Shown piece by piece: positions 423 to 21,805 of a stretch of 64,000 bases of DNA. Position 1 is the first letter of the stretch, and the number at the start of each line of letters is the position of its first letter. This stretch comes from a virus (Duplodnaviria; Caudoviricetes): positions 32,001 to 96,000 of the IMG/VR virus record IMGVR_UViG_3300025934_000014, one strand, 5' to 3'. The notes below the pieces were generated by a model. It saw only the letters and a list, made by a program, of their open reading frames with translations, ran no database searches and was not told the DNA's origin. Position numbers and translations under genes: made by a program.

Positions 423-3400
423 GCGCCGCGCCTGCGCCCCAGCGGGACGCCGTGCCCGGCTTGCAGGCACTGGATCGTCTGCCCACGACCTCGACGGCCT
501 CGATTCCGCTGGCGGTGCGAGCCGCCGACGTGTTCAAGGCAGCGGTGACGCCGCTGAAGGTACCGCTCAACCGCAAGACCACCCAGAACGTGGTACAGCC
601 CGTGCGGCTCGACACGCTGGAGCCGACACGAGAACTGCTGCCCGTGGCCGGGTTGTCGGCGTACGTCGTGAAGCCTCGGCGCGATCCGCCGGACGTGGCG
701 CACGTGGTGATGCGGAGCGGACGCGACCGCTGGGTCATTCAGGAGGGGCACACACGACTGGGCGCGGCCGTCCTGCGCGGCGATGAGACGCTCCCGGCGC
801 GGGTGTGGGAGTTCGAGCAGGCGGACACCGGCGACCTCGTGCCGGTGCTCCGAGGGCTGCACCGGCGCGGCGTCCAGTTGACGCTGCGGGACGCGAAGCC
901 CGGTCTGCATCCCGACTGGCAACTGGGCGAGACGGGGCTGACGCGGCAGATCACGTTCCCGAACCTCCGGGCGTGCGCGACGTTCATCTCGTCGCTGATG
1001 GACGCGGCGAACGACGCGAATCACCACCCCGACGTGCAGAACGACAACTGCGACGTGACGGTCACGTTCATCACCCACGCGACCGGGACCGTGACGGCGA
1101 AGGACTACGCCGGGGCTGAGGAGGCCGACCGGCTCGCAGGCGAAGCCCTGACGGTGCTCTCGGGCGATGACCTCGCGGTGCTGCTGCTCGACTGGCATGA
1201 GGAGTTGCCGAACGGGCGGGACAATGGTAGTATAGACCTCGGCGGTCCCGGCAGCGGAAACTTCGGGCATGCCGGACGGCCCGGCGAAGTGGGTGGGTCG
1301 GCGGATGGTGGCGGCGGCGGCGGAGACACAGTCAGCACGGTTCCTCTGCGCGAGCCGACGCCGCACGAATTCATCGAGGCGCGGAACAAGTCCTCGCGGA
1401 TGGCGTTCCTGTCACCCTTGACCCCGGACGATCTGAAGGGCCAGAAGCTGTACCTGTCGAAGGACGGGACGGTCGGCGGGGCCATGACGCCGGGCGGGGA
1501 CATGGGGAACCTGTTCAACAACGACGGGCCGTCCGGCGCGGCACGCGAAGTGTTGCTCCAGATGATCGCGGATGGGGGCACGACGGCCGACGCGTACGAC
1601 GGGTATCTGCCGTTGCTGTACACCCAGTTCGGGTTGCACGAAACCGGACGCATGGCGTTCAACCCGGAGTACGCGCCGAAGGATTGGAACTACGAGAAGG
1701 ACGATCATCCGGACGTGATCTTCCTCGCACTGGATCAGCACGCCCAGTCGGTCGATGAGATCCGGGAGCGACTGGCGGACGAGTTCCTGTGGCAGACGCC
1801 GAATGAACCGGGAGATAACTACTATGACGACTACGACCAAGGGAAACGAGACGCCACCGCCATCGCCAGCAAGCACGCCATCATCCGACGAAAAGACGCT
1901 GCCGCCAAGCGCACAGAGTCCGGAGGAAAGACGTTTCTTAGCGAAGCTGGAGCGGCTCAAGGGAGCCGACTGGGTCGCGAAGCATGGCGGGTTGGCGCTG
2001 CGGGAGGCGCGAGCACTGGGCGAGATTTAACCTACCGGGACAGGCTCGCACTGCTACTGGGCGACCTTCCCGGTCACGAGTTCCACGGCAACCAGTGGAC
2101 GGATGCGTACCCGGCCGCGTCACGCGACTACCGCATCGAGCCGGTCAAGGGCGACAAGCGTGCCTGCTGCGATCCCGGCGGCGTCAAGACGAAGCTGACC
2201 AAGCCGGAGCAGGGCGCGATTGGCGAGGCCATCGTCGCGGAGTACCTCACCCAGCAGGAGAAGGACCGCGTCTACGCGTCCAACGTCGGGCAACCCAACT
2301 TCCCCATCGACCTCGTCTCGATCAACGACGACGGCAGCGGCGAGGTCATCGAGGTCAAGGCTGGGAGCGCCGGAAACACCACTGGCGCACAGCAGTGGCG
2401 GCTGACCATCGGAGAGCCGGGCAAGGCCGAGAAGGCCATGCTGGCGGATATGTCCGAGGCGGACAAGGCTCGCTGGAACGACAGCAAGGAAGAACAGATT
2501 CTCGTCCGCAAGGAACGGGCGACGAAGCAAATCTCCAAGAACATCGGTCGCCCGGTCAAGGGGCGCACGCTGACGGTGATTCTCAACCCCGACACGCATC
2601 GCGCCGACGTGTACGAGTTCGACGGCTTCCACCAGCGCATCGGCTGGAACAGCGAGGAAGCGAAGGCTGGCTACCGGGGCACGTTCACGTACCGCCAGAA
2701 GCCAGCGGCGCAGCGGAAGGCGGAAGCGACCATCGCCGCACGCCAGTGGTTCGTGCTGTCAGCCGACAAGCCGGACACGTGGACATTCGTGCCGCCGCCC
2801 GGCCTTAACGTACCGCCCGAGGTCGTCGCGGAAGTGCAGCGCGACATCGAGCGCGAGGCGCGACGGTACGAAGCCTCGCTCACCCAGATGTTCCTGAAGA
2901 AATCGGAGACGCATCTCGGGGATGTGCCGGGCCACGAGTTTCACGGGAACCAGTACAGCGAGGGCACGACGGCGCACGCGCCGGGCAAGTCGGTCCAGTT
3001 GCCCGGTCGGTACGACAAGACGAAGGTCGAGAAGCACTCGATCATTGTCACGTCGAAGCACGGCTACATCGCCGCGACGAAGTCGTCCTCGGATCCGGAC
3101 TACTACTGGGTGAACCACATCCGGGTGGACAGCAAGGCCCGAGGCAAGGGTGAGGGCACGGCGCTGTACATCGCGGCGCTCAAGGAAGCGCAGAAGCGCG
3201 GCGGCAAGGGCATCCTGAACGGCGTCCTGCCGGGCCGTGACATCTCCGACGACGCCAAGCGCGTCTGGGCGTCCCTCACGCGCAAGGGACTGACGGAGCC
3301 GATTACGGCGCACGTTCAGAGCGAGGGCAAGGACATCGCGTTCGAGTCTGTCGTGCTCGTGCGATCTGAGCCGAAGGCCACGCACGCATCGACCGCGTGG

Positions 3401-6400
3401 CATCTCGGGGACGTGCCCGGTCATGACTTCCACGGGAATCAGTGGACGCATGAAGGTGGACGCGGCACGCCGCACGGGGCCAAGAAATCGACCAGCGCGG
3501 ATGGCTCCACGGTCGAGAGTTGGTACGACCGGAAATCCCGGTCGTGGATCACGCAGAAGAAGTCGGGCGGCACCGAGGTGGACTCGGAATACAACGGCAC
3601 CAAGGAGGGCATGAACGTCAGTCACGCCACGATGGTGGCGTCGGCGGAGCCTGCGTCGGCGGAGACAGTCACGGACATCCCCGCCGGTGAGAAAGGCGAA
3701 TGCTTCCGCAACGCGGCGCGGTTCGTCCGTCAGCGCGATGGCTACGTGCTTGTCCACGGCAAGGTGACGAACGGCGAGGGGCAGACGTTCGATCACGCGT
3801 GGGCCGAGTCGGCTACGACGGTCGCGGACCCGACCACCGGCGTGGAGATGAACAAGGGCCGGTGGTATGGACTGGTGAAAGCCAAGCCCGAGGCGAAGTA
3901 CACCGCCGAGCACTCGGCCATCAACATGCTGCGAACCCGCAACCACGGGCCGTGGACGGACACGGAGGTCGGTTCGCGCAAGCTGGCGCTCTCCGCGCTG
4001 TATCTCGACTGGGATGAAGGCTCGCATCCGCGTGACGAGAGCGGTCGCTTCGCGGCCGGGTCGGTGTCCGAGTCGATGGCCGCGTTCAAGGCGAAGTATC
4101 CCGAGGTCGCGTCTCGCTACGCACAGCACAGTGGGACAGAGCGCGGCAGCATCGAGGCGCACACGCGCGAGGTGGGCGACACATGGGCGCAGCAACTGAC
4201 GCCCGAGGAGATGTCTGGCATTTCCGCACGGTTCGGGTCCGACGTGGGCAAGCTGATGGCGGCAGCGATTCCGCTGCACGACATCGGGAAGGCCGACGCG
4301 ATTCGCGAGGGCGGGTCACAGCACGAGCACACGATTCCGATTCTGCAACGCGTGCTCCGGCGCGAAGGCTTCGGCGCTCGTGATGTGGCGCTCGCGACCG
4401 AACTGCTGAACCACGACATGATCGGGCCGCTGCTGCGTGCGCATGAGGGCATGCGAGCGACGTACACACCAGAGCAAGTCGCCGCCAAACTGGAAGCGAA
4501 GGCCGAAGCGGTCGGCATGAGTGCGTCCGACTTCGCGACTCTCCAGATGGCGTTCTTCCAAGCGGACGCCTCGTCGTATCCCTTCGTCGCCCGGCAGATG
4601 ACCCGCGAGAAGTCCGGGCGGCACACGTTCGCCGGGTCGAAGGTGCTCGCGCCGATTCACGCGCTGGTGTCGCGGACGATTCGTCTGTCCATCGATCTGG
4701 GCGATCTGCCCGGCCATGAATTCCACGGCAACCAATGGACCGACGGGTCCGGCGTCAGCGGTCGCGAGTTCGCTGGCAACGAGGGCTACGAGTGGCACGA
4801 GCGCCCAGAGATGGAGACGTATGCCCGGAGCTTGCCGCCGCAGGACGTGGAGGCGGTTGGTAATTACGCGGGGTTCTCCTACGCCGATGTGAATCAACTC
4901 CTGCGCGGCACGTTCCAGCCCGACATCGTCAACGAGTTCGTGCGTCCCGCCACGCCCGAGGAGATCGAAGCGTACAAGCCGTCGATGATGTTCCGAAGTG
5001 GTGGCGCGAAGGACTACGAGCCGGACGATCCGACGAACAAGGTGGCTGACGGGCGCATTATTCGTAATGCGTTCACGGTCGATCCTGCCACGGGTGAGAA
5101 AGTCTTTTACAGCATCCAGCGTGCGGTCCCCGATCAGGCACGCATCCGGAATCTGGAAGACATGACGCGGACGATCAACACGATGATTCGTGAGCGAGGG
5201 TACGTTCTTCCAGAGGCGATCACGGTCAATCGTGCGGCCTACGTGCCCGGCCTGTCCTACGACGATCTGAAGGCGATGGAGGGCGGCGTCATGGAGGAGA
5301 AGGGCTTCACCTCCACGATGCTGGGCAATCCCGGCAATCGGCTGGACAGCTACGTGATGGGTGGCAAGTCCGAGAGCCTCTACAAGAGGTACGCGGACAA
5401 GGAAGGCTCGCACGCGATCTACACACGGCAGGACGAGGTCGGTGCGCCGATGCGCATCAAGATCGTTTTGCCTGCTGGCACCAAGGTCGCTCCGGTCGAA
5501 TCGCTGCGGCGGATCGATTACGAGTACCCGAAGATCCAAGACCCGGCGGTGTTCGACCATCCGGAGTGGTTAACGAAGGATGACGGCACGCCGAATGGCC
5601 TGACGGCCAGCGACTACACGAAGACGGACTACACCGCGAAGCCGACCATCAAGACGAATCGGCTGCATGAGACGAACCAACGCAGCGAGGCCGAGATTCT
5701 ACTGGGCAGCGGAGCGCAGTTCCGCGTCGTCAATGTGCAGCGCGGCCCCCGACGCATCACGTCCTCCGATCCGCAGATGAAGGCGCTGGACGTGATCGAC
5801 GTGACGCTGGAATACATCGGCGGCGGCAGCAGCGAGGGGACGCAGAAGAAAGACCTGAGTAGCAAAGTGGAACGCTGTTCCACTTTGCCCTCGCTCGATC
5901 TCGGTGGCCCCGGCAGCGGCAACTTTGGACACGCCGGTCGCCCCGGCGAGATCGGTGGATCGGCCAGCGAGGAATCGAATGCGTCGGCATTCATTCAGCG
6001 CGACACCTTACCGGCCGATGCCGAGGCGCTGGCGACGATTGAAGGCGCTGGTCCGGAGCGGCGGAAGTGGGTCGAGCGGCTGGTGGCCTCACGGAAGGCC
6101 GATGCCGCACTGTACGACGCAGAGGAGGCGCACAAGGCGTCGATCAAACTGGTCGAGCAGCGGTACGGAACGTGGGAGAGCTTGCTGACTCCGTCCGCCA
6201 GCGATGAAGAACTCGGACGACGCGCGGAGGCGCTGGAGGCCAGACGGCGAGCCGACCCGGACTTCCGGGCCACGCTCGACGTGATGGTGGCCGCGTACGA
6301 CGCGAAGGTGGCGGCGGAGAAGGCGTGGAAGGAGCAAGAGTCTCCGATGCGCGTGGAAGTGATCACGAACCTCTCGCACGCCGTGGCAAAGGACATGGGC

Positions 6401-7165
6401 GTCGATCCGTCGATCATTCACGTCGTGGACAAGGAGCCTCGGGCGTTCACGGTGGGCACGAAGGAATTCCGCGAGGGTGGGCACTACGACACGATCACCA
6501 ATCAGATCGAAATCAATGCCCGGAACCTCCCATACGGGGACGTGCCATCAGTTCAAGGCATCGCGGCGCACGAAGCCTCCCATGCGATCTATAACCGGTT
6601 CAAGGACGAACTGAAAGCCGAGGACGAGCGATACAAGGTGCTGTCCGGGCATTACAACGACGAGAAGGGCACGGACTGGTTCTATGAGCGGTTCGACCAG
6701 CCGCACCGGTTCGGGGAGACGACGGTGAAGCCGGGGATGCGCGAACAACTGGCGCGAGAGTTCCCGGCGTCGGCCGTGTGGGCCAACCTTCACGACGGGA
6801 AGATGTTCACGGGCCTCTCGGACAAGATCATCAAGGAGAACGGGCACAGCGCCTACGCGAAGTCGTACTGGACGCCTGACGCCGTGCGCGTGCGGGGGCA
6901 CGGGACGTACGACACGGCGATCAACGAAACCGTGGCCGAGGTCACGCGCTGGCTCGTCGCACCCAAGTCGTGGAATGAAGAACCGGCCAAAGCGTCGGTG
7001 GCCGATGGCAAGATTCGTCTGCAATCGACGGGACTCGGTCCCAAGTCTGCGTGGGTCGCGCTCACCAAGGGCATGCACGCGTGGTACAAAGACCTCCGAA
7101 CCAAAGAGACGGCGGAGTCGGACGCGTACTGGGCGAAGCGCAGGAAAGAGCAGGCGCAGTCATGA
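419..7165 (+). CDS. Polyvalent effector polyprotein 1 (2248 aa): ParB/Srx, pterin-4a-carbinolamine dehydratase, GNAT, PD-(D/E)xK nuclease, GNAT, papain-like, HD, VIP2-like ART, zincin
   Basis: EGHTR (~590-815); NHHPD..THATG..TAKD (~905-1140); DAYDGYLPLLYTQFG..YAP.DW (~1350-1735); GEAIVAEYL..PIDLV..IEVK (~2200-2700); RVDSKARGKGEGTALY (~3040-3290); GECF..HG..HAW..DPT (~3695-3960); LHDIGK..H..HD..AD (~4150-4590); Y..VNQLLRG..NR..GFTST..EAEILL (~4850-5820); HEASH..SAYA..NETVAE (~6350-6960). Modules are separated by repeated tags. Confidence 0.85.
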   Translation: MSAAPAPQRDAVPGLQALDRLPTTSTASIPLAVRAADVFKAAVTPLKVPLNRKTTQNVVQPVRLDTLEPTRELLPVAGLSAYVVKPRRDPPDVAHVVMRSGRDRWVIQEGHTRLGAAVLRGDETLPARVWEFEQADTGDLVPVLRGLHRRGVQLTLRDAKPGLHPDWQLGETGLTRQITFPNLRACATFISSLMDAANDANHHPDVQNDNCDVTVTFITHATGTVTAKDYAGAEEADRLAGEALTVLSGDDLAVLLLDWHEELPNGRDNGSIDLGGPGSGNFGHAGRPGEVGGSADGGGGGGDTVSTVPLREPTPHEFIEARNKSSRMAFLSPLTPDDLKGQKLYLSKDGTVGGAMTPGGDMGNLFNNDGPSGAAREVLLQMIADGGTTADAYDGYLPLLYTQFGLHETGRMAFNPEYAPKDWNYEKDDHPDVIFLALDQHAQSVDEIRERLADEFLWQTPNEPGDNYYDDYDQGKRDATAIASKHAIIRRKDAAAKRTESGGKTFLSEAGAAQGSRLGREAWRVGAAGGASTGRDLTYRDRLALLLGDLPGHEFHGNQWTDAYPAASRDYRIEPVKGDKRACCDPGGVKTKLTKPEQGAIGEAIVAEYLTQQEKDRVYASNVGQPNFPIDLVSINDDGSGEVIEVKAGSAGNTTGAQQWRLTIGEPGKAEKAMLADMSEADKARWNDSKEEQILVRKERATKQISKNIGRPVKGRTLTVILNPDTHRADVYEFDGFHQRIGWNSEEAKAGYRGTFTYRQKPAAQRKAEATIAARQWFVLSADKPDTWTFVPPPGLNVPPEVVAEVQRDIEREARRYEASLTQMFLKKSETHLGDVPGHEFHGNQYSEGTTAHAPGKSVQLPGRYDKTKVEKHSIIVTSKHGYIAATKSSSDPDYYWVNHIRVDSKARGKGEGTALYIAALKEAQKRGGKGILNGVLPGRDISDDAKRVWASLTRKGLTEPITAHVQSEGKDIAFESVVLVRSEPKATHASTAWHLGDVPGHDFHGNQWTHEGGRGTPHGAKKSTSADGSTVESWYDRKSRSWITQKKSGGTEVDSEYNGTKEGMNVSHATMVASAEPASAETVTDIPAGEKGECFRNAARFVRQRDGYVLVHGKVTNGEGQTFDHAWAESATTVADPTTGVEMNKGRWYGLVKAKPEAKYTAEHSAINMLRTRNHGPWTDTEVGSRKLALSALYLDWDEGSHPRDESGRFAAGSVSESMAAFKAKYPEVASRYAQHSGTERGSIEAHTREVGDTWAQQLTPEEMSGISARFGSDVGKLMAAAIPLHDIGKADAIREGGSQHEHTIPILQRVLRREGFGARDVALATELLNHDMIGPLLRAHEGMRATYTPEQVAAKLEAKAEAVGMSASDFATLQMAFFQADASSYPFVARQMTREKSGRHTFAGSKVLAPIHALVSRTIRLSIDLGDLPGHEFHGNQWTDGSGVSGREFAGNEGYEWHERPEMETYARSLPPQDVEAVGNYAGFSYADVNQLLRGTFQPDIVNEFVRPATPEEIEAYKPSMMFRSGGAKDYEPDDPTNKVADGRIIRNAFTVDPATGEKVFYSIQRAVPDQARIRNLEDMTRTINTMIRERGYVLPEAITVNRAAYVPGLSYDDLKAMEGGVMEEKGFTSTMLGNPGNRLDSYVMGGKSESLYKRYADKEGSHAIYTRQDEVGAPMRIKIVLPAGTKVAPVESLRRIDYEYPKIQDPAVFDHPEWLTKDDGTPNGLTASDYTKTDYTAKPTIKTNRLHETNQRSEAEILLGSGAQFRVVNVQRGPRRITSSDPQMKALDVIDVTLEYIGGGSSEGTQKKDLSSKVERCSTLPSLDLGGPGSGNFGHAGRPGEIGGSASEESNASAFIQRDTLPADAEALATIEGAGPERRKWVERLVASRKADAALYDAEEAHKASIKLVEQRYGTWESLLTPSASDEELGRRAEALEARRRADPDFRATLDVMVAAYDAKVAAEKAWKEQESPMRVEVITNLSHAVAKDMGVDPSIIHVVDKEPRAFTVGTKEFREGGHYDTITNQIEINARNLPYGDVPSVQGIAAHEASHAIYNRFKDELKAEDERYKVLSGHYNDEKGTDWFYERFDQPHRFGETTVKPGMREQLAREFPASAVWANLHDGKMFTGLSDKIIKENGHSAYAKSYWTPDAVRVRGHGTYDTAINETVAEVTRWLVAPKSWNEEPAKASVADGKIRLQSTGLGPKSAWVALTKGMHAWYKDLRTKETAESDAYWAKRRKEQAQS
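1205..1233 (+). promoter_or_regulatory. sigma70-like promoter inside polyprotein 1
   Basis: TTGCCG-17 nt-TAGTAT with TG at the extended -10 position; locally AT-rich in GC-rich coding DNA. Confidence 0.45.
1824..2030 (+). CDS. Nested out-of-frame small protein (68 aa), candidate partner/inhibitor of the adjacent GNAT
   Basis: GGAG 1811-1814, ATG 1824, TAA 2028-2030; protein-like C-terminus ERRFLAKLERLKGADWVAKHGGLALREARALGEI lies over a low-complexity linker of the host frame. Confidence 0.55.
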   Translation: MTTTTKGNETPPPSPASTPSSDEKTLPPSAQSPEERRFLAKLERLKGADWVAKHGGLALREARALGEI

Positions 7166-8388
7166 CGCCCGAGTCCATCACCATCGACGGCCGCTCCGGC
7201 AGCGTCGTCTATCTCGATGCGAACTGGCACCCGGTGCCAGCGGCGCAGGCGACGATGGCGAAGGTTGTGTTCGATGACGGCGGCACTTCGTTCTTCACCG
7301 TAGCCGAGCCACCCGCGCCGGAGCCTGCGCCACCACCCGACCCGCATCACCTGACCTATCGCGAGAAGCTGGCGTACCTGCTGGGCGGCGCAGGCAGCGG
7401 CAACTTCGGGCACGCGGGGCGACCCGGCGAGGTCGGCGGATCGGCTGAGGGCGACAGCGACCCCATCGAGGCGAAGCACCGCGCGTTCGTCGCACTGGTC
7501 AAGAAGGGCGAGGACACCCAAGCCAGTCTGAACGTCATGCGTGACGGCATGAAGGACGCGTGGGAGGTCTGGCGCAAAGACATTACCGACCGCAAGAAGC
7601 CGCTGAAGCCCGATGGCGCTGCTGCGAAGAAGCTCGACTCGTACAAAAAGGTCAAGGAACTGGAGGCGACCTTCCACGCGGCGTACGACAAGGCGATCAC
7701 GGAGAGCAGCGAGATCAACCGACAAGCACGCGAGATGCTGAAGGTGCCCGTTGGGGACCGGTCGGCGCTGACGTTCGCGACTGCGCCGGAGGTGCAGGGG
7801 GTGCTGGCGGTTGGAGCGAACCGGGCGCTCGCCGTGTTTCGCCAGTTCGACGGGTCGGGCGCATTCACGGCGCACAAGTATCCCATCGAGATGCTGGAGA
7901 AGTTCCGTGTGGTCGTGGGCGAGACGACGCCGATCACGGAGAACGGCGACGGCACGTTTTCCATTCCCTCGACCTTGCGTGTGGGCAAGGCGGCAGGGGG
8001 GCGTGCGTCCGCGACGGTCGGCGGCATCATGATCGCGGGTGGTCGCGATCTGGATGCGTCGATCTGGCACGAGGTCGCGCACCACGTCGAGATGAACAAG
8101 CCGTCGGTGTTGAAAGCGGCCATCGAGTTGCGGGACAAGCTGGCGAAGCAGCCTCGTGAGGTCTATTCGCTGAAGACCGTCAGTCCCTCACTTGATGAGC
8201 ACGAGGTCGCGCTGCGTGGCAACTTCCCGGACCCATACTCGGCCAAGCTCTACCCGAACGACATTGCGACGGAGATCATCTCGACCGGCGTGGAGGCGTA
8301 CATCAAAGACCCTGTCGGGTTCGCGCGAGATCGCCCGGAGCATTTCAAACTCATCTTCGACGTGATGCACGGGAAGTACCACTCATGA
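7162..8388 (+). CDS. Polyvalent protein 2: IDGR N-terminal domain, tags D+A, zincin metallopeptidase
   Basis: ATGA overlap at 7162; HEVAHHVE (~8068), PYSAKLY..ATEIISTGVE. Confidence 0.8.
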   Translation: MTPESITIDGRSGSVVYLDANWHPVPAAQATMAKVVFDDGGTSFFTVAEPPAPEPAPPPDPHHLTYREKLAYLLGGAGSGNFGHAGRPGEVGGSAEGDSDPIEAKHRAFVALVKKGEDTQASLNVMRDGMKDAWEVWRKDITDRKKPLKPDGAAAKKLDSYKKVKELEATFHAAYDKAITESSEINRQAREMLKVPVGDRSALTFATAPEVQGVLAVGANRALAVFRQFDGSGAFTAHKYPIEMLEKFRVVVGETTPITENGDGTFSIPSTLRVGKAAGGRASATVGGIMIAGGRDLDASIWHEVAHHVEMNKPSVLKAAIELRDKLAKQPREVYSLKTVSPSLDEHEVALRGNFPDPYSAKLYPNDIATEIISTGVEAYIKDPVGFARDRPEHFKLIFDVMHGKYHS

Positions 8389-8615
8389 TCACCATCAAGC
8401 TCCCCTCCGGCGAACTCGCGAAGGTCGAGGACGGTATCTGGTCGGTGCCGGAGAACAACACGCTCGCGGAGTTACTAAACCGACCGTCGATGCAGCCGCC
8501 GGACAACGGGTACTACGCACCCAGTGAGGACGCACGCGCGGCCGAGCATGTCCTGAAGGTCTGGGGCGGCACGTGGGTGTCGCCCACGCCGCGCTGGCCG
8601 AAGAAGGTGTACTGA
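8385..8615 (+). CDS. Small protein (76 aa), candidate partner of upstream peptidase
   Basis: ATGA overlap upstream and TGATG overlap downstream; carries no tag. Confidence 0.65.
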   Translation: MITIKLPSGELAKVEDGIWSVPENNTLAELLNRPSMQPPDNGYYAPSEDARAAEHVLKVWGGTWVSPTPRWPKKVY

Positions 8616-13600: not shown

Positions 13601-14967
13601 ACGAGTCTGATATTCACGAGAAGATGATCGAGGACGGGTTCGCGGAAGACTTCGTGGGGCTGGACGAGCGGCGCGACCTTGATCCGAACGCGTACGGCGA
13701 TGCGTACGGCGATGCGAAGGAGGCGCTGACCAATAAGTTGCGGGACAGCGATGGCGCGATGGAAGCCTACTCGGACGCGTCTCGCGAGTACGCGCAGAAC
13801 GACTGGAATGAATTGAGTTCCAGTGAGCAGTTCGATTACGCCAAGGACCACGGCTTCGCGACCGGAGCCAACCTGCGGCCGGGCGCACCGGACACGTGGG
13901 TGTGGGACAGCGACCGCGAGGAGGACGAACCCGAGAGCGAGGACTACCTCCGCACACGGGTCATCGCGAATGAACTGGTGACGGAGCGCACCACTGCGCT
14001 CATGAAAGAGCGCGGCCTCCCCACGGAGCCGGGTACCCCGACACCGGAATTCATCAGTCAGCAGTTGTGGGACGCATGGAAAAGCGACTCCCAGTCCTCA
14101 CTGGGGTACGCGATGCAGATCGCCGTGTCAGAGGAACTGGGCACGCATTCGACGCCCTCGATCACGTCGGCCGAGCGCGAGGCCGCAGAGAAGGCGATGA
14201 TCGACACGTTCACGACGAAAGCGGAACGGCAGGCGATGAGTCCCGAGGCGCTGGGGATCATCAAGGAGATCGACAAGCTCCCCGCCGACCAGCGCACGGA
14301 CGCCCTCAATCGGGCCATTGAGGCGCAGCAGGCTGGCAAGGGAGCCATCCTCAAACTGGCGAAGGATCGCGTGAAAGCCTACGTACGCGGCCAGTGGGAG
14401 ACGACCCAGTTCCTGCTGCATCAGGCCGACACGTTGCGTGTGCCGGTGTATCGCGCCATCGTGCGCCCCCGCGACGAACTCGATCAGACGCGTCACGTGG
14501 ATCTGGAAGCCGGAACGAAGCTCCCGGATTATCAACTCCGGCAGAATGCGGCAGCGTCGGCCACGACGAAGCGTCAGGTCGCCAACGAGTGGAACGGCGT
14601 CAGTGTGCGCCTCGATCCGAACAAGTCGCAGCGGGTGGTCCTGCGCTTCGACGCGCCGCGCACGGCGGTCTTCTCGCTGCCGGTGTACGGGCAGAATGTC
14701 TACAACGAGTCCGAGGTCGTGCTGATGGGCACGAAGGGCTTGAAGTGGGACGCGTGGCTCAAGGAAGGTCCGGAGTTCAAGGAGCAGCGGATCGACATGG
14801 CTCGCTTCAAGGTGGAGATCGAGATGGACGAAACGCCGAAGCCGCCGCCGCCCCCGGCGAAGAAGGGTCCAGTGATTGACCTCCTGAAGGATCAGGAGAA
14901 GCACTGGCTGCACCCGGACCACTACAAGTTCAAGACGCGGAAGCCGAAGAAGCCCGAGGCGAAGTGA
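10669..14967 (+). CDS. Polyvalent protein 4 (1432 aa): GNAT, ParB/Srx, acidic region, R-S-E ART
   Basis: GGGLAK..ANIDVGGYAWAKFGF (~11520-12000); RADMPQI..PSQKEI..VLDGHHHWAA (~12720-13140); VYRA..ASATT..NESEVVLMG (~14060-14760), paralogous to the second ART of 8615-10672. Confidence 0.85.
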   Translation: MMNIDAKLSNADWPKRTPDRFPARRVHLGGAGSGNFGHAGRPGEIGGSAEGDGEGSYSKKSVKGKNIVRVDDEANDAVVSNVLGLHSEAAVRDLAESMVQYADQEKFAVTIMTEGGGPDEEELRESYDEYVEQSRREARNDWVAERRDRAAEIDTLWESMKAEAEEARRTGPYGDTREIPTLPLGEGEAFQPGDTAEKIEYEDLVEGLDPSAPWSEDEKAILRERLMQTGGPVQKSINQMRSEWDEGVGQDFEPNDSFHEWSAEQDDSNYSGEEVVRIKFAGSAGTQITREFKRDGNGELVVDHSYFQAGNTGGGLAKDLLRASFDEYERMGVDKVTVHANIDVGGYAWAKFGFKVDDDEHGGPDVDSLIARAERRGMITHEERLQLEDIATETDGEDTQLWAIADATSEGKKIGSAVLLGSDWYGQIRLKDKEAMNRLHKYLSASKPEKALPKKPAPAPVPVTGKPEDKLAAKAGALTAERRRLIDTARGTAAEDARLREIDTELRRLQREAQRVVRPSNQKAKETVAQRERRKRERADVLAEQKERNANRKRLGLSPINFADDPPTPPTDPPTPDAPRPGSREMFYEEADGTRADRDLWRDLLGEDFPDDLPPKPTSLYRDKLRSMQLEWDEGEHPRDARGQFEDSHSPGEALHSLLDGHKTNIDPHHVRALLKKALKQGLDADLTDLHVNGHLIFGGNGLGIARADMPQIPPEHREPFLQSLRDAGVTVTREMVNPLTLAPSQKEISARRAAEKLDKLETKGKPFKPVLVSQGNRVLDGHHHWAAAAALALEHPEMKVPIYRIKLPTRRALAKMHTYDKTHGIERVALSAIESDEVTAHEQVLLLDWDESLHPRADDGEFTDGSGGGSNASPYAVSEDAPRGGEGQQALFEYQPEAGSETALKIEASKGIAAIEKLLPDAIDDADYKVAVKSWDELDSDDQNSAEESYIDDIINDSGPSEAGQEASDAYVSEHLNESDIHEKMIEDGFAEDFVGLDERRDLDPNAYGDAYGDAKEALTNKLRDSDGAMEAYSDASREYAQNDWNELSSSEQFDYAKDHGFATGANLRPGAPDTWVWDSDREEDEPESEDYLRTRVIANELVTERTTALMKERGLPTEPGTPTPEFISQQLWDAWKSDSQSSLGYAMQIAVSEELGTHSTPSITSAEREAAEKAMIDTFTTKAERQAMSPEALGIIKEIDKLPADQRTDALNRAIEAQQAGKGAILKLAKDRVKAYVRGQWETTQFLLHQADTLRVPVYRAIVRPRDELDQTRHVDLEAGTKLPDYQLRQNAAASATTKRQVANEWNGVSVRLDPNKSQRVVLRFDAPRTAVFSLPVYGQNVYNESEVVLMGTKGLKWDAWLKEGPEFKEQRIDMARFKVEIEMDETPKPPPPPAKKGPVIDLLKDQEKHWLHPDHYKFKTRKPKKPEAK

Positions 14968-16241
14968 TGCCCAGTCTCCAGCGCGACCAGATCGACGGCC
15001 GGTGGGCCACCATCGCGTACCTCCACGACGACGCACTGGTGGACCCCGACCGCGCGACGACGGCGATTGCGAAGTTCGACAACGGCGAGGTCATCCTGCT
15101 CGCGGTCACGCAGGAGCGGTCGCTGGCGCTCCCCGTGGGCGAGGTGATTACCATGCCGTTCGCGGACTACGAAGACTTCGCGGACTGCGTCGAGAAGAAT
15201 CAGGACAAGGACGACCCGAAGGCGTTCTGCGGCTGGCTGAAGCATCGCATCGAAGGGTCGGACCCGCCGCCGGTGGACCTGAGTTACCGGGACAAGCTCG
15301 CCCTGACACTGGCGGTCGCGAACTATGATAGTATAGATGCACGTCACCTTGAGTGGGACGAGGGGCAACACCCGCGTGCGGATGACGGGAAGTTCAGCGA
15401 AGGAGACGGCAGCAATGGCGGACACGCCGACGGACAACCGCAAGGATCGGGAACTGACGGAGGAGGAGGAAGATCGGTATCCGCCCCCGCCGCCAAAACG
15501 CACGCCCGTCCCGGAGCCGACCCCGCCGCCACGCGCGTAGCGGACAGCTACAACGAGCAGCACGGACTCCCGCCGGTCGATCACAGCACCTACGCAGAGG
15601 TTGACCAGCCGCGTGCGCGGAGCATTGCCGACGCGTACGACGCGCTGCCGGTCAACGACCAAGACAACCCCAAGGTCAAGGAAGCCTACGCCGCGCTGAG
15701 CACGGAGATTCAACAGCAGTGGGACCACATCGTCGCCAGCGGCATGACGTTGGAGCCGTGGACACAAGAGGGTCAGCCCTATCAGACCTCGACCGAGATG
15801 GTCGCGGACGTGAAGAACAACAAGCACATGTACTTCTACACGGGTGGCGAGCCGCACCCGTTGATCGGGGCGAAGTCGAAGGACAAGTCCGGGCTGTCCC
15901 TGAACGAGAAGTTCCGCGCCGTCCATGACTACTTCGGTCACGCCGCAGGCGGGTACGGCTTCGGGCCGCGTGGCGAGGAGAACGCGTGGCGCTCGCACTC
16001 GCAGATGCTGACGATGCCAGCGCGGCGTGCGTTGACGACGGAGACGCGCGGCCAGAATTCGTGGGTCAACTTCGGACGCCAGAACTACGAGGCCGACGGC
16101 ACGCACAAGAACCTGCCGCCCGGCGAGCGCCCGTTCGCCGCGCAGAAGGTGGCGCTCCTGCCGGACGAGTATGTGCTGATGCCCGGTGAGCAGCCGAAGT
16201 CGCTGTCGGCGTATCGCCAGCGGCTGCTGGGGGTCATGTGA
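14964..16241 (+). CDS. Polyvalent protein 5: IDGR domain, PFADY..DCV..C mini-domain, tags D+C, HDxxGH putative metalloenzyme
   Basis: FRAVHDYFGH..FGPRGEENAW..TETRGQNSWVNFG (~15915-16080); GTGA overlap. Confidence 0.75.
   Translation: MMPSLQRDQIDGRWATIAYLHDDALVDPDRATTAIAKFDNGEVILLAVTQERSLALPVGEVITMPFADYEDFADCVEKNQDKDDPKAFCGWLKHRIEGSDPPPVDLSYRDKLALTLAVANYDSIDARHLEWDEGQHPRADDGKFSEGDGSNGGHADGQPQGSGTDGGGGRSVSAPAAKTHARPGADPAATRVADSYNEQHGLPPVDHSTYAEVDQPRARSIADAYDALPVNDQDNPKVKEAYAALSTEIQQQWDHIVASGMTLEPWTQEGQPYQTSTEMVADVKNNKHMYFYTGGEPHPLIGAKSKDKSGLSLNEKFRAVHDYFGHAAGGYGFGPRGEENAWRSHSQMLTMPARRALTTETRGQNSWVNFGRQNYEADGTHKNLPPGERPFAAQKVALLPDEYVLMPGEQPKSLSAYRQRLLGVM
15415..15540 (+). CDS. Nested out-of-frame small acidic/Pro-rich peptide (41 aa)
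   Basis: AGGAG 15401-15405, ATG 15415, TAG 15538-15540; TG-a-TAGTAT extended -10 at 15326-15334 upstream. Confidence 0.4.
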   Translation: MADTPTDNRKDRELTEEEEDRYPPPPPKRTPVPEPTPPPRA

Positions 16242-16894
16242 TCGCCTACCGCGAGAAGCTCGCCGTGCTCGCGCTGGGAGATGTCGAAGGGCATCCCTTT
16301 CGCGGCAACCAGTGGACGGATGGCGAGGGCGGCGGCACCGATGGCGAGCACTGGGCGTGGGGCGACACGGGGACCAAGAGCGCCATCCGCATATACACGC
16401 AGGGCAACGCCCGGTACATGAACGAACTGCTGCGCGTGACGGCGAAACGGGCGCGAGGAGAGACGGTCACGGGGCGGTTCAGTACTGGCCCGTACGCGAA
16501 AGCAGTTCCCGACGCCGATGCGGTACGGCTACTCGATGCGCACATGCGAAAGAATCCATTTCCCGAGGACACGACGCTCACGCGCACGGTGTCCAACTTC
16601 GTCGTGAAGGGATTGGATGTTGGGGATGTGTACCAAGACGACGGCTACGCGTCCACCACGTCAGACGCAGGCATGCTCGATCAGATCCGCGCCGACATCG
16701 GCGTGAGCATGCCGTCCTACCAGACGAAGCTGACCGTGCTGGCCCCCAAGGGGCTGGGGCGCATCGACGTGAACAAGGAGATCGGCACGGACCACGAATA
16801 CTCCCATCAGCACGAAGTCATCCTGCCGCGTGGCCTCCGGTACAAGGTCGTCAGCAAGGGTCCGAACGAAATGACCGTACAGGTGCTCCAGTGA
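16238..16894 (+). CDS. Tagged VIP2/C3-like ADP-ribosyltransferase
   Basis: Tags D+B, then IYT..MNELLR..LTR..GYASTT..HQHEVILPRG (R-STT-QxE). Confidence 0.85.
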   Translation: MIAYREKLAVLALGDVEGHPFRGNQWTDGEGGGTDGEHWAWGDTGTKSAIRIYTQGNARYMNELLRVTAKRARGETVTGRFSTGPYAKAVPDADAVRLLDAHMRKNPFPEDTTLTRTVSNFVVKGLDVGDVYQDDGYASTTSDAGMLDQIRADIGVSMPSYQTKLTVLAPKGLGRIDVNKEIGTDHEYSHQHEVILPRGLRYKVVSKGPNEMTVQVLQ

Positions 16895-19302
16895 GAGACG
16901 CCCACGCCGACCGATTCGCGTTGAAGGCTGGTGACTTCGTCATCGTCTCCAAGGCGAAGAAGGCGCTGAGCGCGGACCCGTTCCTCCTCGGGGATACCGA
17001 GGGGCATCCGTTTCGCGGGAACCAGTACACCAACGCGGGTGAACACGTCGAGGTCGAGGGCCGGTCGATCAAGGTCACGCACAGTGCTCGCGCTCGACGC
17101 GCTGGCGACGTGCTCGTGCCCGTGGACATGGCGAAGTTCGATGCCGCATGGAAGCAGGACACCGGCTTCCACATCGACCCGTCAGGCACCGGCGCGATTC
17201 ACGGGCGGCTGGAGCGCATTGCGGACTTCCTGAAGACCTCGCCGCAGATGGACGCCGCCGAGGTCAACGTCGATGCCGATGGCCGCGTCGGCTTCACGAA
17301 CGGGCGTCACCGCATGGCCTACCTGCGCGACAAGGGCGTGACGCGGGTGCCGGTGTCGATGACGAAGGAGTCGCGAGCGAACGCGAAGAAGCATGGGCTG
17401 ATCGCCGCCGAGCGCACGGACCTCCGTGGGCTGTTCCAGTTGTACAGCGATGACCAGCCGCGCGATGAGCAGGGCCGGTTCGCGGAGACGGGTTCGTCGC
17501 CGTACGCGGCCGAGCCGCGCGTGTTCAATACCGACGATGACCTGATCTCGGAACGGAACTGGGGCAAGGACCAGTGGGTCTGGAAGGACAAGAAAACCGG
17601 CAAGGGGTCCGGGATGCTGCTGACCGGCGAACCGATCCCGCGTGCGCAGCTACCGACGGAGTTGTACCACGTCACGACGAACGCGCCAGCGGTCGAGGCC
17701 AGCGGCGTGCTCTTGGGTCAGCGATCCGATGCCGGGCTTGGCGGCGGGCAGGCTGACGGCGTGTCGTTCACCTCGTCCAAAGAGGACGCACGGGTCATCC
17801 AGCGCGAACTGGTGCGCAGCGTGAAGATCGCCCGAGGCGACGACGACGGCATGGACGCTATCGCGCAGTACGCGCGTGAGGACGAGAAGGAGGCGGGACT
17901 GCCGCCGGGCACGCTCGACCACGCCGTGGAGTTCGCCCGGAGCGGCTGGGATGCGGGAGCGCAGTCGCGCACGGCCACCTTCACGGACGGGGCGTATCAC
18001 GACGACATTCCGCTGCCGAAGGACGAGCAGGCCCGGTTGCGTCGGAGCAGCACGAAGGATGCGTTGAACGCGTACCTTCAGATTCGCGGCCACCATGACG
18101 ACACGCATCCGATCCTGAAGAACCCGATCCTGTTTGGCCGTCAAGAGAAGCTCGCGAAGATCGACCCCGACTCGATCAAGACACTGACGATCCCGACGAA
18201 GAACATCCCGGCCAAGGCGCTGGTCACAACCGGGTCCGACAAGTTCCTGCATGAGGTCCGGGCGTACGCGGACGTACCGGCCGGTGGTGCGACTGCGACG
18301 AAGCTGTACCGGGACAAGCTCGTGTCGATTATCAATCTGCCCGACATCAGTGACGTGTCGTTCCCGTCGATGGTCGGGGCGATCCCGTCGAAGCCACCCA
18401 AGCGGAAACGGACGCGCACGCTCTACAAGGGCGTGAGCCTGAGCCGACGGCCGATGAAGTTCGAGGCCAAGGTGCTGTCGCTGACGGAGATCCCCCGGCG
18501 ACTCGACGCGTGCCGCGACACGCTGCTGGGTTGTGACGAGGACCGCTGGCGCGACACGCTGCACGATCTCGCCGCGTACGGCGCGAGCGAAGTGCTGATG
18601 GAACTGGTGCGGCAGGGCGCACCGGCGCGGCTGGGCACGCGCGAGATCCCGGTCGATGTGGACGGCATCTGCGCGGCGGTGCTGGCTGACCGGGCACGGG
18701 CGCTCACCAGCCTGCGCGAGGACTACGAGGCGCGGCTCCGGCGGCGACGGATCGGGGCCGACCGGCGCGAGGCGCTCACCCGGTCGTTCACGGATCGGCG
18801 CTCGCCGTCGCTGCTGAAGCGGTTCGCCAGCCGGGCGACCAACGAAGCGTTCGCGCTGGGTCGCTCGACGGCGATGCAGGCGCTCCGGCGCTCGCGCATC
18901 CCGCTGGAGTTTGAACTGGCCTACCGGGACGAGAACGGCAAGTTCATCAGCAAGGCCGAGGCCGTGGCCGGGGGCGAGGCCATCGTGGACGCGGTCATCC
19001 AGACGGCGGTCATGGACACGGGCACGTGCGATGAGTGCGCTGAGGTCGATGGCGAGTCGATGGAACTGGGCAGCGACCGGCAGGAGGAACTGCGCCCACC
19101 CTACGTGAAGTGCCTCGGCGGGGATGCCTGCCGGTGCGTCCAGATCGCGCTCCTCTCCGACGGCAGCGAAATCGACGTGGACGAAATTGACGAGGACACG
19201 CTGGGCGACCACGAGAGCGACAAGCCGAGTAAGCCGAGCACGAAGGCCGCGCCCGAGGCCGACACGGCCGATACCGGCGACGAGAGTGATAGCGAGGATT
19301 GA
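16891..19302 (+). CDS. Polyvalent protein with C-terminal MuF (Mu gpF/SPP1 gp7-like) domain; also ParB/Srx and possible ART-like domain
   Basis: GTG start at 16891 (GTGA overlap); FTNGRHRMAYLRDKG; LYHVTT..GVSFT..E; C-terminal NEAFALGR..AVMDTGTCDEC..DG..PP..C.GG..CRC; lies just before the protease. Confidence 0.8.
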   Translation: MRDAHADRFALKAGDFVIVSKAKKALSADPFLLGDTEGHPFRGNQYTNAGEHVEVEGRSIKVTHSARARRAGDVLVPVDMAKFDAAWKQDTGFHIDPSGTGAIHGRLERIADFLKTSPQMDAAEVNVDADGRVGFTNGRHRMAYLRDKGVTRVPVSMTKESRANAKKHGLIAAERTDLRGLFQLYSDDQPRDEQGRFAETGSSPYAAEPRVFNTDDDLISERNWGKDQWVWKDKKTGKGSGMLLTGEPIPRAQLPTELYHVTTNAPAVEASGVLLGQRSDAGLGGGQADGVSFTSSKEDARVIQRELVRSVKIARGDDDGMDAIAQYAREDEKEAGLPPGTLDHAVEFARSGWDAGAQSRTATFTDGAYHDDIPLPKDEQARLRRSSTKDALNAYLQIRGHHDDTHPILKNPILFGRQEKLAKIDPDSIKTLTIPTKNIPAKALVTTGSDKFLHEVRAYADVPAGGATATKLYRDKLVSIINLPDISDVSFPSMVGAIPSKPPKRKRTRTLYKGVSLSRRPMKFEAKVLSLTEIPRRLDACRDTLLGCDEDRWRDTLHDLAAYGASEVLMELVRQGAPARLGTREIPVDVDGICAAVLADRARALTSLREDYEARLRRRRIGADRREALTRSFTDRRSPSLLKRFASRATNEAFALGRSTAMQALRRSRIPLEFELAYRDENGKFISKAEAVAGGEAIVDAVIQTAVMDTGTCDECAEVDGESMELGSDRQEELRPPYVKCLGGDACRCVQIALLSDGSEIDVDEIDEDTLGDHESDKPSKPSTKAAPEADTADTGDESDSED

Positions 19303-19646
19303 TGCCGACGGCGACGACCCATCACGGTACCGTGAAAACTCTGCTCCTGATTCTGGCGAAGGTGCTGGGGGCGGACGCGGCCGAGGAGCGACCCCCGGCG
19401 ACCGAGAAGCTCGTGGATCGGCTCGACGTGACCGTGGACGCGTACTGCCCGTGCGGCTCGACGCATCTGCATCACCTCACGCTCGTGTCTACGTCGGAGT
19501 GCGCCCGGTGCAGCCGGACGCTGGCGATTCGCTCGATCCAGTACGTGCGGTCGAACTTCGGGACGATCCCGCAGGCACAGGTGTCGGTCGGCTACGTGTT
19601 CACGCCGGATTCGCTGCGGCGTCGGCGGACCACCGGGGTGCATTGA
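19302..19646 (+). CDS. Small Zn-ribbon protein
   Basis: CPCG...CARC; TGATG coupling. Confidence 0.6.
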   Translation: MPTATTHHGTVKTLLLILAKVLGADAAEERPPATEKLVDRLDVTVDAYCPCGSTHLHHLTLVSTSECARCSRTLAIRSIQYVRSNFGTIPQAQVSVGYVFTPDSLRRRRTTGVH

Positions 19647-19936
19647 GTGGACTGCGGACGCATCTGTCAATGGGACAGCCCGGCGGTTCGGCTGGAGCAG
19701 CGGACGGGCATCTGGCACTGGCACTTCAGGTGCCGGAAATGCCTCCGGATAATATCGTTCACGTCCGCGTACGCCCCGAGTTCGCGGAGCGGGTCCAATA
19801 GATTCAACAACTTACAGGAACGTGTTGCGCCTCAGCCCGAAGCAATCGCAAAGTATGGGGGTTTGGCGGCGGCATCACCCCACCGCTAGTCCCATGTTTT
19901 CATCTTGACTTTGTCGGACAACCTTGCGGTGTTCCA

Positions 19937-21805
19937 ATGGCTGATCTGACGCGCGTCATCCTCTCGACTCCCTCCCTGCTGAGCGCGATCACGCTGAGCG
20001 GCACGGGCAAGCGCAGTTGGATCCAACTCGCGCGTACGGGTTCCTTCACGTCCAGTCGCTACGGCAAGTTCAGCATCACCAAGGACGACCTGTCCTCGAT
20101 GCTGCACAACTTCAAGACCATCACGCCGAAGAACCCGACCGAACTGCCGATTGATTGGGACCACCTCTCGATGGACCCCAAGAAGCCGGGCGACGGGGCG
20201 GCAGCGGCGTGGATGAAGAACCTTGAACTGCGTGACGACGGCGACACGCTCTGGGCCGAGGTCGAGTGGACGCCGAAGGGCATGGACGCGGTCGAGAACA
20301 AGGAGTACCGGTTCATCAGCCCGTCGTTCGTGAAGAACCACACGCACAAGGACGGGTCGAAGATCGGCACGACGTTGCTGGCGGCGGCGATCACGAATCA
20401 TCCGTTCCTTGAAGGGATGACGGCGCTGTCGCTCTACTCGTGCAAGGAAGTGCCGTTCATGGACTTCACCAAGACGGGGACGCTCGATGTGTCCGCGCAC
20501 GAACTGGTGAACCTGTCCACGACGGAAGGCACCAAGGCCGGGATGCGCGTCATGATCGCGCCGGGCAACGCCCGGACGCAGGACGAGATCGGCGCGACAT
20601 TCGAGATTGCCGAAGTGGTCGGGGAAGGGGACGACGCCTTCGTGTCCGTGAAGGATGCGAACGGCATGATCCACAAGTGGTTCCGCGCGACGGAACTGCT
20701 GCCTGCCAGTGCGACACCCGCCAACCCTCAGCATCCGGGCCTGACGCCGGGCGCAGCGCCGACCGTGCCGGTGCCGGGCCTGCCGGGACCGGGGGTGCCG
20801 GGGATCCCCGGTGCGCCGGGCGTGGTGCCGCCACAGGCTCCTATCGCGGCGCTGCCGGGCCAGCAGGGTGTTGCGCCCAACACAGCGGCGGTGGTGAATC
20901 CGACCAACCCGAATACGCCGGTGACGGATCCAGCGGCTCCCGTGACCCCGCAGGTACCGAATCCGGTCGGGGCCAAGCTGGAACAGAAAGCCGCTGGCTC
21001 GCAGGAGAAGGACGGCGCGGACGGCAAGGGCGGCAATCCCTTCGCGAAGGGCGAGGGCGACAAGAAGCCCGACGTGAGCGCGAAGGTCGATAAGGGTGCC
21101 GACGGCGAAGCCACGGTCGTCACCAAATCCGGGACCGACGGCGACGAGTCAAAAGTCGCCGCTGTCGTCAACAACCTGCCGCTTCCAGACGAGTTGAAGC
21201 AAGCCATCGCGGCTGCGTTGGCTGCGGCTGCGGCCAACCCACAGCAGAAGGGAATGCACATGAAGTTCATGCTGAAGAACGACGCCGGTGGCGAGGTGGA
21301 AGTCAGCCTCGAACAGTTGGAAGCCGCTGGCGTCAAGATCGTCAAGGACGGCGAGACGGTCATCCCGAAGGCGGACCTGACCAACTTGCAGTCGCAGGTG
21401 GTGTCGCTGTCTTCACGGCTCGATCAGACCGAGAAGGAAAAGTCCACGGCGGCGATGACGGTCGAACTGAACCGGCTGTCGCAGGGCGCGTTCATCACGA
21501 AGCCCGAGCGCGACTGGGCCGAGAAGATGTGGAAGGACACCGTGGACCTCTCCGGGTTCCGCGAGTGGGCCGCGACCAAGACCACGCCCGTTATCTCGCT
21601 GAACAAGGAGCACGGCTCCGGCGGCAAGGCCGAAGGCGATGCGAAGACCAACGGCGAGCAGGCCGAGGAGAAGCTGATCGAACTGTCGCGGAAGATCGCG
21701 AAGGACGAAGGCATCTCGCTGCGGGACGCGACGATCAAGGCGGGAACGCAGTTGGCGGGTGACGCCGAAGCGTACCGCGAGCGGTTCGCCTCGGCGGACG
21801 CGTAA
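19937..21805 (+). CDS. Mu gpI-like prohead protease fused to scaffold
   Basis: WIQLARTG..PIDWDH..AAAW..LWAEVEWT..EYRFISPSF..AAITNHPFL, then Pro-rich linker and coiled-coil C-terminus. Confidence 0.9.
   Translation: MADLTRVILSTPSLLSAITLSGTGKRSWIQLARTGSFTSSRYGKFSITKDDLSSMLHNFKTITPKNPTELPIDWDHLSMDPKKPGDGAAAAWMKNLELRDDGDTLWAEVEWTPKGMDAVENKEYRFISPSFVKNHTHKDGSKIGTTLLAAAITNHPFLEGMTALSLYSCKEVPFMDFTKTGTLDVSAHELVNLSTTEGTKAGMRVMIAPGNARTQDEIGATFEIAEVVGEGDDAFVSVKDANGMIHKWFRATELLPASATPANPQHPGLTPGAAPTVPVPGLPGPGVPGIPGAPGVVPPQAPIAALPGQQGVAPNTAAVVNPTNPNTPVTDPAAPVTPQVPNPVGAKLEQKAAGSQEKDGADGKGGNPFAKGEGDKKPDVSAKVDKGADGEATVVTKSGTDGDESKVAAVVNNLPLPDELKQAIAAALAAAAANPQQKGMHMKFMLKNDAGGEVEVSLEQLEAAGVKIVKDGETVIPKADLTNLQSQVVSLSSRLDQTEKEKSTAAMTVELNRLSQGAFITKPERDWAEKMWKDTVDLSGFREWAATKTTPVISLNKEHGSGGKAEGDAKTNGEQAEEKLIELSRKIAKDEGISLRDATIKAGTQLAGDAEAYRERFASADA

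Follow-up and report, generated by a model that had tools for sequence, protein, structure and literature searches.

The stretch of DNA analysed here (the window, 64,000 nucleotides) belongs to the 122-kb genome record of an uncultured phage, and a megablast search with 25 kb against GenBank phages returned no match. Seven translationally coupled cargo genes, modelled from GC3 and from overlapping start and stop codons, lie upstream of the protease and capsid genes; these and all other features named below are on the plus strand. G1 (419..7165) encodes a 2248-aa polyvalent protein with a ParB-like N-terminus, PCD and GNAT domains and seven sequence tags, and is followed by G2 (7162..8388; 408-aa cargo protein), a coupled 76-aa ORF (8385-8615), G3 (8615..10672; 685-aa ART-PolyVal protein), G4 (10669..14967; 1432-aa cargo protein), G5 (14964..16241; 425-aa cargo protein), G6 (16238..16894; 218 aa, assigned to the ADP-ribosyltransferase exoenzyme family PF03496 on its database record) and G7 (16891..19302; 803 aa, with a C-terminal MuF-like domain). 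Downstream lie a Mu gpI-like protease-scaffold fusion of 622 aa (19937..21805; PF10123, E 4.6e-30) and a gpE-like major capsid protein (22541..23467; phrog_1005, E 9e-81).

ART-PolyVal and PCD exceed the Pfam cut-offs, and the matches to GNAT, ADP-ribosyltransferase exoenzyme and PFIN fall just below them, those to GNAT and the exoenzyme family in G1 included. A single 465-aa ParB-MuF protein of the related lineage L004 matches both ends of the array: its N-terminal half shares 60% identity with the ParB-like N-terminus of G1, and its C-terminal half shares 54% with the MuF-like domain of G7, which itself matches Phage_Mu_F weakly (E 0.03). The cargo array lies between what were the ParB-like half and the MuF-like half of a single ancestral protein. 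The genes show what characterizes polyvalent proteins: several unrelated effector domains per polypeptide, a position in the head module and a link to MuF. Judging by where the genes lie, by their link to MuF and by the presence of the ART-PolyVal family, the motif-bearing proteins of this clade are most likely packaged into the head.

The motif YR[DEQ][KR]L occurs eight times in the cargo genes, and no further copy is found in the six frames of the window. The copies are YRDRL at 2033..2047 (residue 539 of G1; LLGD and a tag of the GNQ type come next), YREKL at 7357..7371 (residue 66 of G2, ahead of a tag of the GNFGHAG type), YREKL at 8693..8707 (residue 27 of G3, followed by a GNQ-type tag), YRDKL at 12529..12543 (residue 621 of G4, ahead of a tag of the WDExxHPR type), YRDKL at 15285..15299 (residue 108 of G5, with a WDExxHPR-type tag 25 residues downstream), YRQRL at 16212..16226 (9 residues from the C-terminus of G5, with no tag after it), YREKL at 16247..16261 (residues 4-8 of G6, which starts M-I-A-Y-R, followed by a GNQ-type tag) and YRDKL at 18307..18321 (residue 473 of G7, where the MuF-like domain follows at once and there is no tag). 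A sequence-only reading of this DNA had reported at least one copy in each of seven large effector genes, eight in all, usually just upstream of another tag. The counts are borne out, since every cargo gene carries the motif and G5 carries it twice, and six of the eight copies stand 7-25 residues before a tag of the GHxFxGNQ, GNFGHAG or WDExxHPR type; the word large does not suit G6. Its further statement that there is roughly one copy per protein also holds, with P = 0.004 when copies are placed by protein length and P = 0.026 when they are placed by tag. In 5000 shuffles of six cargo reading frames, which hold seven of the eight copies (the one at 16247 is in another frame), the mean number of copies was 0.02 and the maximum 1. 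When the coding-like ORFs of the 122-kb record are considered (open frames of at least 80 codons with coding-like third-position GC), the sole further match is YRERF at 21773, in the ORF 19937-21805 and 10 residues before its end.

The codons of the copies vary and nucleotide identity among them is mostly below 70%, which indicates that they are not recent DNA repeats. A recombination repeat at the DNA level was considered and rejected on the same grounds, only two of 36 copy pairs exceeding 70% identity over 39 nt. Tyr, Arg and Leu are invariant across 15 module segments that were aligned without regard to the pattern, and in 24 pattern-selected copies from six lineages Leu recurs at position -2 and Ser or Thr at -1. 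The motif is the start of an amphipathic helix of about nine residues within otherwise unstructured linkers, with the consensus L-[ST]-Y-R-[DE]-[KR]-L-A-x-L-L; in the AF2 model of the G3 leader the motif stretch alone is helical. All 11 cargo-bearing lineages examined retain the motif, whereas the tag downstream of it varies, five types being represented; about 60% of the cargo ORFs in relatives have the motif (about 40% are without). A pattern scan of IMG/VR gave matches from this clade only. Neither the metagenome scan nor the P0099 contig, a small satellite-like element, added cargo arrays, and a tblastn search with the 51-aa leader yielded nothing of use among phage and plasmid records. 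Taken together, the sequence comparisons support a real, selected and cargo-specific short linear motif.

The relation between the helix and the tags deserves separate attention. The helix was found on 11 of 486 HPR tags (from the best 150 of 859 clusters), and the ten with identifiable contigs all belong to this clade; on GNQ tags outside the clade it was not found. The idea that the helix is a general part of the tags was rejected, because only 2% of the HPR tags outside the clade's proteins have it. The GNQ, GNFGHAG and HPR tags are a separate and far more widespread element, perhaps processing sites. On the other hand, the spacing from the helix to the start of the tag (LGD, LGG or LDW) is nearly fixed in 17 cases, and helix and tag could therefore be one functional unit. 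The same spacing speaks for the helix as an exosite for the clade's gpI-type head protease, which would direct or speed cleavage at the adjacent tag and so free the effector domains; the helix and the long-form protease are both clade-specific, and a similar motif ends the protease's own polypeptide. However, the helix is missing from ten of the window's 16 tags and from about half of those across the clade, and there are helices without a downstream tag (at the C-terminus of G5, in G002, and before the MuF-like domain in G7, L004 and L009). Moreover, clipping a 15-residue N-terminal peptide would be purposeless unless the peptide had an earlier role, and we know of no cleavage site for any gpI-type protease, which also counts against the proposal. 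We consider an exosite improbable. Extreme N-terminal starts of the form M-x-x-Y-R-[DE]-[KR]-[LI] are found in G6, L005 (6034), G003 (6199), P0137 and the MuF-like gene of L038, and the tagless copies at N- and C-termini agree better with targeting than with cleavage as the role of the motif.

The sequence-only reading had also proposed that the motif mimics the C-terminus of the scaffold, YRERF. The tail is correctly given, but the protein called scaffold is the C-terminal part of the 622-aa protease-scaffold fusion. Within the fusion, the invariant M442 (nt 21260) is an internal start candidate, with the ribosome-binding site AAGGGA lying 6 nt before it, and a start at this codon would likely yield a 181-aa scaffold like Mu gpZ. 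A small beta domain is inserted in the fusion, which also has a Pro-rich linker, and this long form of the protease is clade-specific; Foldseek of the model returned only KOW/SH3-like matches, all of them to that beta domain and none with E <=0.001. In Mu gpI/gpZ, too, there is a PF10123 protease domain and a nested scaffold of comparable size (183 aa in gpZ), and A-E-x-Y is conserved in both tails; the differences are the long form with its beta domain and linker and the Mu tail EAEYLKM, which is without R-E.

The tail YRERFASADA (21773..21802) lies in the last helix (607-618) of a conserved and confidently modelled C-terminal helical hairpin, and its Y613 is invariant in 45 homologs. Such a hairpin is the usual coat-binding element of a scaffold. 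[quoted passage not shown] Tyr, Arg (in 34 of the 45 tails), acidic +2 and hydrophobic +4 positions and Ala at +5 are common to tail and cargo, the second motif of G5 is about as far from its C-terminus as that of the scaffold (9 against 10 residues), and a profile built from the scaffold tails of relatives places five cargo copies in the top 15 of 54,000 genome positions. Nevertheless, the position +4 is never exchanged: it is Phe or Tyr in 42 of the 45 tails and Met or Gln in the other three, never Leu, whereas it is Leu or Ile in 24 of 24 cargo copies. Position +3 is mostly Gln in the tails but Lys or Arg in nearly every cargo copy, looser searches included. The N-terminal context differs as well, since the cargo motif stands at a helix start after L-[ST] and the tail in mid-helix after A-E-A. 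In the reverse direction, the cargo profile gives the tail 8-12 bits, level with several chance matches, while true copies score 17-35 bits. Overall, the resemblance is estimated at p about 0.001, or 0.01 after allowing for the other places where it could have been looked for.

The expected covariation of motif and tail among relatives is absent. Tails reading YQEQF (L007, L008), YQARF (the P0025 contig), YLEEM (L038) and YQDQY (L064) stand alongside cargo with YR[DE][KR]L, despite a capsid protein that is 65-99% identical across the relatives compared; relatives that keep the motif while the tail differs are what the proposal of mimicry had named as evidence against itself. The shared element is Y-R-[DE]-x-hydrophobic-A. 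A precedent for mimicry is CpmB of SaPI1, which competes with the scaffold of 80alpha (PMC5644958), and the likeness to that system consists in a C-terminal helical scaffold element and in the idea of a second protein competing for the capsid protein; in our case the likeness extends only to Y-R-acidic-x-hydrophobic, does not covary, and involves a cargo helix that is mostly not C-terminal. Scaffold tails and cargo copies are, judging by their conservation patterns, two separately conserved motifs. Mimicry of the tail by the cargo motif is weakly supported and we hold loading by way of the scaffold's pocket to be unlikely, and the likeness of the two may reflect a shared partner.

Where, then, did the helix come from? 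Sequence comparison traces it to the clade's ParB-MuF head protein, in which it is the native linker after the ParB-like domain. In this phage, effector modules amounting to about 19 kb have been inserted at the ParB-MuF junction, and copies of the helix have gone along with them. The spread of the motif could in part be a by-product of module insertion. The idea that the MuF-like domain must begin with this helix was rejected, as many homologs have other sequences before the domain. With such an origin, the helix could also be a passive structural linker or a remnant copied with each module, one that has no partner and merely caps or spaces adjacent domains; this would agree with the absence of the motif from some cargo proteins and with the other sequences that often precede the MuF-like domain. 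Yet the invariant Tyr, Arg and Leu, together with the acidic +2 and basic +3 positions, persist in more than 35 diverged copies, which exceeds the constraint usual for a spacer. In addition, copies at the extreme termini have no domain to cap, and the Pro/Gly/charged flanks are modelled as coil. A passive role is, in our opinion, distinctly unlikely.

The reading that we tentatively prefer, with a probability of roughly 0.45, is that of a clade-specific cargo-recruitment motif, in which the helix, lying in otherwise disordered linkers, docks the cargo on a component of the procapsid. As a self-contained docking motif it would recruit each separately translated cargo polypeptide to the assembling procapsid. 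Its partner would be clade-specific, and the candidates are the scaffold core, the inner surface of the capsid, the protease and the portal. It is doubtful whether one can go further and regard the helix as a portable capsid-loading address for Mu-like heads, docking at the capsid-protein site that the last scaffold helix uses, such that any domains inserted behind a copy would be packaged and injected.

Mullaney and Black reportedly described a capsid-targeting sequence on the internal proteins of T4 in 1996 (as cited in PMC9958956 and PMC8442874). This sequence, MKTYQEFIAE, is a clipped N-terminal signal (PMC8442874), and the cargo helix compares with it as follows: it is a short peptide common to otherwise unrelated proteins (here eight copies in seven proteins of different domain content, and 11 lineages), four to five of the copies are extreme N-terminal in the register M-x-x-Y-x-E-x-hydrophobic-A, and a likely processing site lies just downstream. 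In contrast to T4, most copies are internal or C-terminal and both targeting and cleavage are putative; furthermore, the head is Mu-like (gpI protease-scaffold, gpE-like capsid), and the sequence likeness may be a coincidence. The DarB protein of P1 has an N-terminal packaging signal (PMC9024508), and it is likewise a giant anti-defence polyvalent protein sent into the head by a short terminal signal, a role that is putative here; the difference is that one motif is common to many proteins of this clade, whereas the N-termini of the P1 Dar proteins have no consensus. With the polyvalent proteins (Iyer et al. 2017, PMC5512222) and the MuF polymorphic toxins (PMC5576092), the array shares multi-domain, MuF-linked effectors beside head genes, and ART-PolyVal is present; it differs in the C-terminal position of its MuF-like domain and in its division into seven coupled genes. 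Searching the text of both papers with terms for linkers, motifs and cleavage turned up neither the helix nor the tags.

To our knowledge, the way in which phages select the proteins that enter the head has been worked out in detail in only a handful of systems, T4 and P1 among them. Polyvalent proteins are presumed to be packaged, and we know of no loading signal described for them. This clade offers a candidate for such a signal, a helix of 8-12 residues that is found on cargo only, is independent of the widespread tags, occurs in N-terminal, internal and C-terminal positions and has an evolutionary origin that can be traced to the ParB-MuF linker. If the helix is not a loading signal, it still marks module boundaries and helps to parse giant proteins. 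If it is one, it would be directly testable with procapsid-like particles and could be used for loading foreign proteins. Should the portable capsid-loading address prove true, it would explain the 19-kb effector arsenals of the clade and would provide a designable cargo tag.

The IMG/VR virus record from which the window is taken (bases 32001-96000) comprises 122,115 bp with 65% GC, and no close relative was found among GenBank phages. Seven coupled cargo genes (G1-G7) and a 76-aa ORF occupy positions 419-19302, as delimited by GC3 frame plots and start/stop overlaps (ATGA, GTGA, TGATG). 3′ of this array are a 622-aa protease-scaffold fusion similar to Mu gpI (19937-21805; PF10123, E 4.6e-30; phrog_328), a gene coding for 159 aa, and the gene of a gpE-like major capsid protein (phrog_1005, E 9e-81). 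Of the domain matches in the cargo proteins, those to ART-PolyVal and pterin dehydratase pass the Pfam thresholds; those to GNAT, ADP-ribosyltransferase exoenzyme and PFIN narrowly miss them.

In the related contig L004 a single 465-aa ParB-MuF protein (L004 8125-9519) takes the place of the array. Its residues 12-150 match the N-terminus of G1 (window 419-874; 60% identity, E 1e-47), and residues 176-464 match the C-terminus of G7 (18328-19302; 54% identity, E 2e-88), which is also a weak Phage_Mu_F match. Because these two termini are the halves of one L004 protein, the 19-kb array arose by expansion within a ParB-MuF head protein, with approximately 19 kb of effector modules inserted at its linker helix. 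The arrangement agrees with the phage-type polyvalent proteins described by Iyer et al. (PMC5512222), whose packaging is presumed; text searches of that paper on linkers, motifs and cleavage found neither the helix nor the tags discussed below.

Some smaller features of the array are also recorded. The 76-aa ORF (8385-8615, starting MITIKLPSGE) is coupled to the 3′ end of G2; the related contig L038 (3838-4071) keeps both the C-terminal end of G2 (..IFDVMHGKY..) and the small ORF, and in L065 the same end is followed by a 77-aa ORF. G2 and its small ORF resemble a toxin with its immunity partner. A leader, DRF-x-W-x-EF-x-IVK-P-x-P, recurs at the N-termini of G3 (8630-8680), G7 (16906-16960) and one protein of contig L031, also named G001 (ORF 6902-8017), and is followed by the helix or a tag. 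Between G7 and the protease gene (19299-19889) one frame holds two small ORFs with just a stop codon (19644-19646) between them, across which GC3 remains high.

The window contains eight copies of YR[DEQ][KR]L, against a shuffle expectation of 0.02; every one of the seven cargo proteins carries one or more, and they lie where the sequence-only reading had placed them. Codon use differs among the copies, and the coding-like ORFs of the entire genome hold just one further strict match, YRERF, located in the tail of the scaffold. The roughly one-per-protein spread proposed earlier is indeed more even than chance, both for the presence of the motif in all seven proteins (P = 0.004, copies placed by length) and for six tag-linked copies in six different proteins (P = 0.026). 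The claim that the motif usually stands just upstream of a tag holds for six window copies, but not for those at the C-terminus of G5 and before the MuF-like domain of G7.

Across 24 copies from six lineages the consensus is L-[ST]-Y-R-[DE]-[KR]-L-A-x-L-L-[G/L]-D, and an alignment of 15 module segments shows no variation at Y, R and L. AF2 models of the aligned leaders show YREKLALLL as the sole helical stretch, the remainder being coil; the Ser/Thr that precedes Tyr, together with the acidic side chain at +2 (counted from Tyr), resembles a helix cap, and a single face would be made up of Y, L+4, L+7 and L+8. Of the 16 tags in the window, ten have no helix. Besides G5 and G7, tag-free helices are present in G002 and, ahead of the MuF-like domain, in L004 and L009, and the helix forms the first residues of G6, of proteins in the relatives L005 (6034) and G003 (6199), of P0137 and of the L038 MuF-like gene; occurring alone and at extreme N-termini, it acts as a self-contained short linear motif. 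At the G5/G6 junction (16212-16261) two copies in different frames start 35 nt from each other, G5 ending in ..AYRQRLLGVM and G6 beginning with MIAYREKLA, which gives the impression of a single module cut by the gene boundary.

Within the clade, where capsid proteins are 65-99% identical, YR[DE][KR]L is kept in every examined lineage with cargo, while the downstream tag type varies (GNQ, GNFGHAG, WDExxHPR, KYPxGKYPNE, YPPxAGE). About 40% of the relatives' cargo ORFs are without the motif. The tags are very widespread, unlike the clade-restricted helix. A helix plus HPR tag profile retrieved 859 clusters at E <= 0.001, and proteins with the WDExxHPRxxxGxF tag run up to 7334 aa, some with 20 copies; in the best 150 of these clusters just 11 of 486 HPR tags carry the helix, and the 10 with identifiable contigs are all on clade contigs. 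Outside the clade, KGD takes the place of the helix in front of GNQ tags, and a degenerate DNA pattern for helix plus LLGD matched only the clade in IMG/VR. In the parts of the polyvalent-protein and MuF literature searched by term (PMC5512222, PMC5576092), no description of the WDExxHPRxxxGxF tag was found.

Among 120 homologs of the protease-scaffold fusion, the C-terminal ends of the long forms share a conserved S-L-R-D-A..A-E-A-Y-R-E-x-F and those of the short forms differ from it; Y613 and the internal M442 are both invariant in 45 long forms. M442 (nt 21260), which has the ribosome-binding site AAGGGA 6 nt before it, is likely a separate start, which would yield a 181-aa scaffold like Mu gpZ (183 aa, ending EAEYLKMKQEQEK). 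AF2 predicts confident helices at 572-591, 595-605 and 607-618, the last of which covers YRERF and thus places it within the final helix of a hairpin. Scaffolds usually bind the coat through helical hairpins of this kind, as in P22. A small beta domain inserted after the protease domain (residues 200-256; window 20540-20710) is also confidently modelled; its fold matches are KOW/SH3-like only (NusG, Spt5), none at E <= 0.001. A short-form gpI protease was found in L066, the contig of P0099, in a small integrase/primase-bearing element without a MuF gene, possibly a phage satellite.

The sequence-only reading took the cargo motif for a mimic of this tail. The two have in common Y, R, an acidic +2, a hydrophobic +4 and an Ala at +5, and among the 15 positions (of 54,000) that score best under a tail profile from relatives, five are cargo copies. 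Conversely, the cargo profile gives the tail 8-12 bits, equal to several chance matches (true copies, 17-35 bits); +4 is F/Y in 42 of 45 tails and L in none, but L or I in cargo copies, and +3 is mostly Q in tails but K or R in cargo. The cargo motif is moreover unchanged in five lineages with tails YQEQF, YQARF, YLEEM or YQDQY, an outcome that the sequence-only reading had itself named as speaking against it, though the Y/acidic/hydrophobic skeleton persists. Overall the resemblance has an estimated p of ~0.001, or ~0.01 allowing for other possible search places, and strict mimicry seems unlikely.

Service as a protease exosite is similarly improbable, and a pure cleavage role is opposed by the terminal helix copies without tags; a passive linker is rated slightly lower still. 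The nearest precedents for a recruitment helix are the T4 capsid-targeting sequence MKTYQEFIAE (PMC8442874) and the P1 DarB signal (PMC9024508), and SaPI1 CpmB (PMC5644958) offers one for scaffold competition. The most likely role of the helix, with a probability of roughly 0.45, would be to recruit head cargo, as an element particular to this clade.
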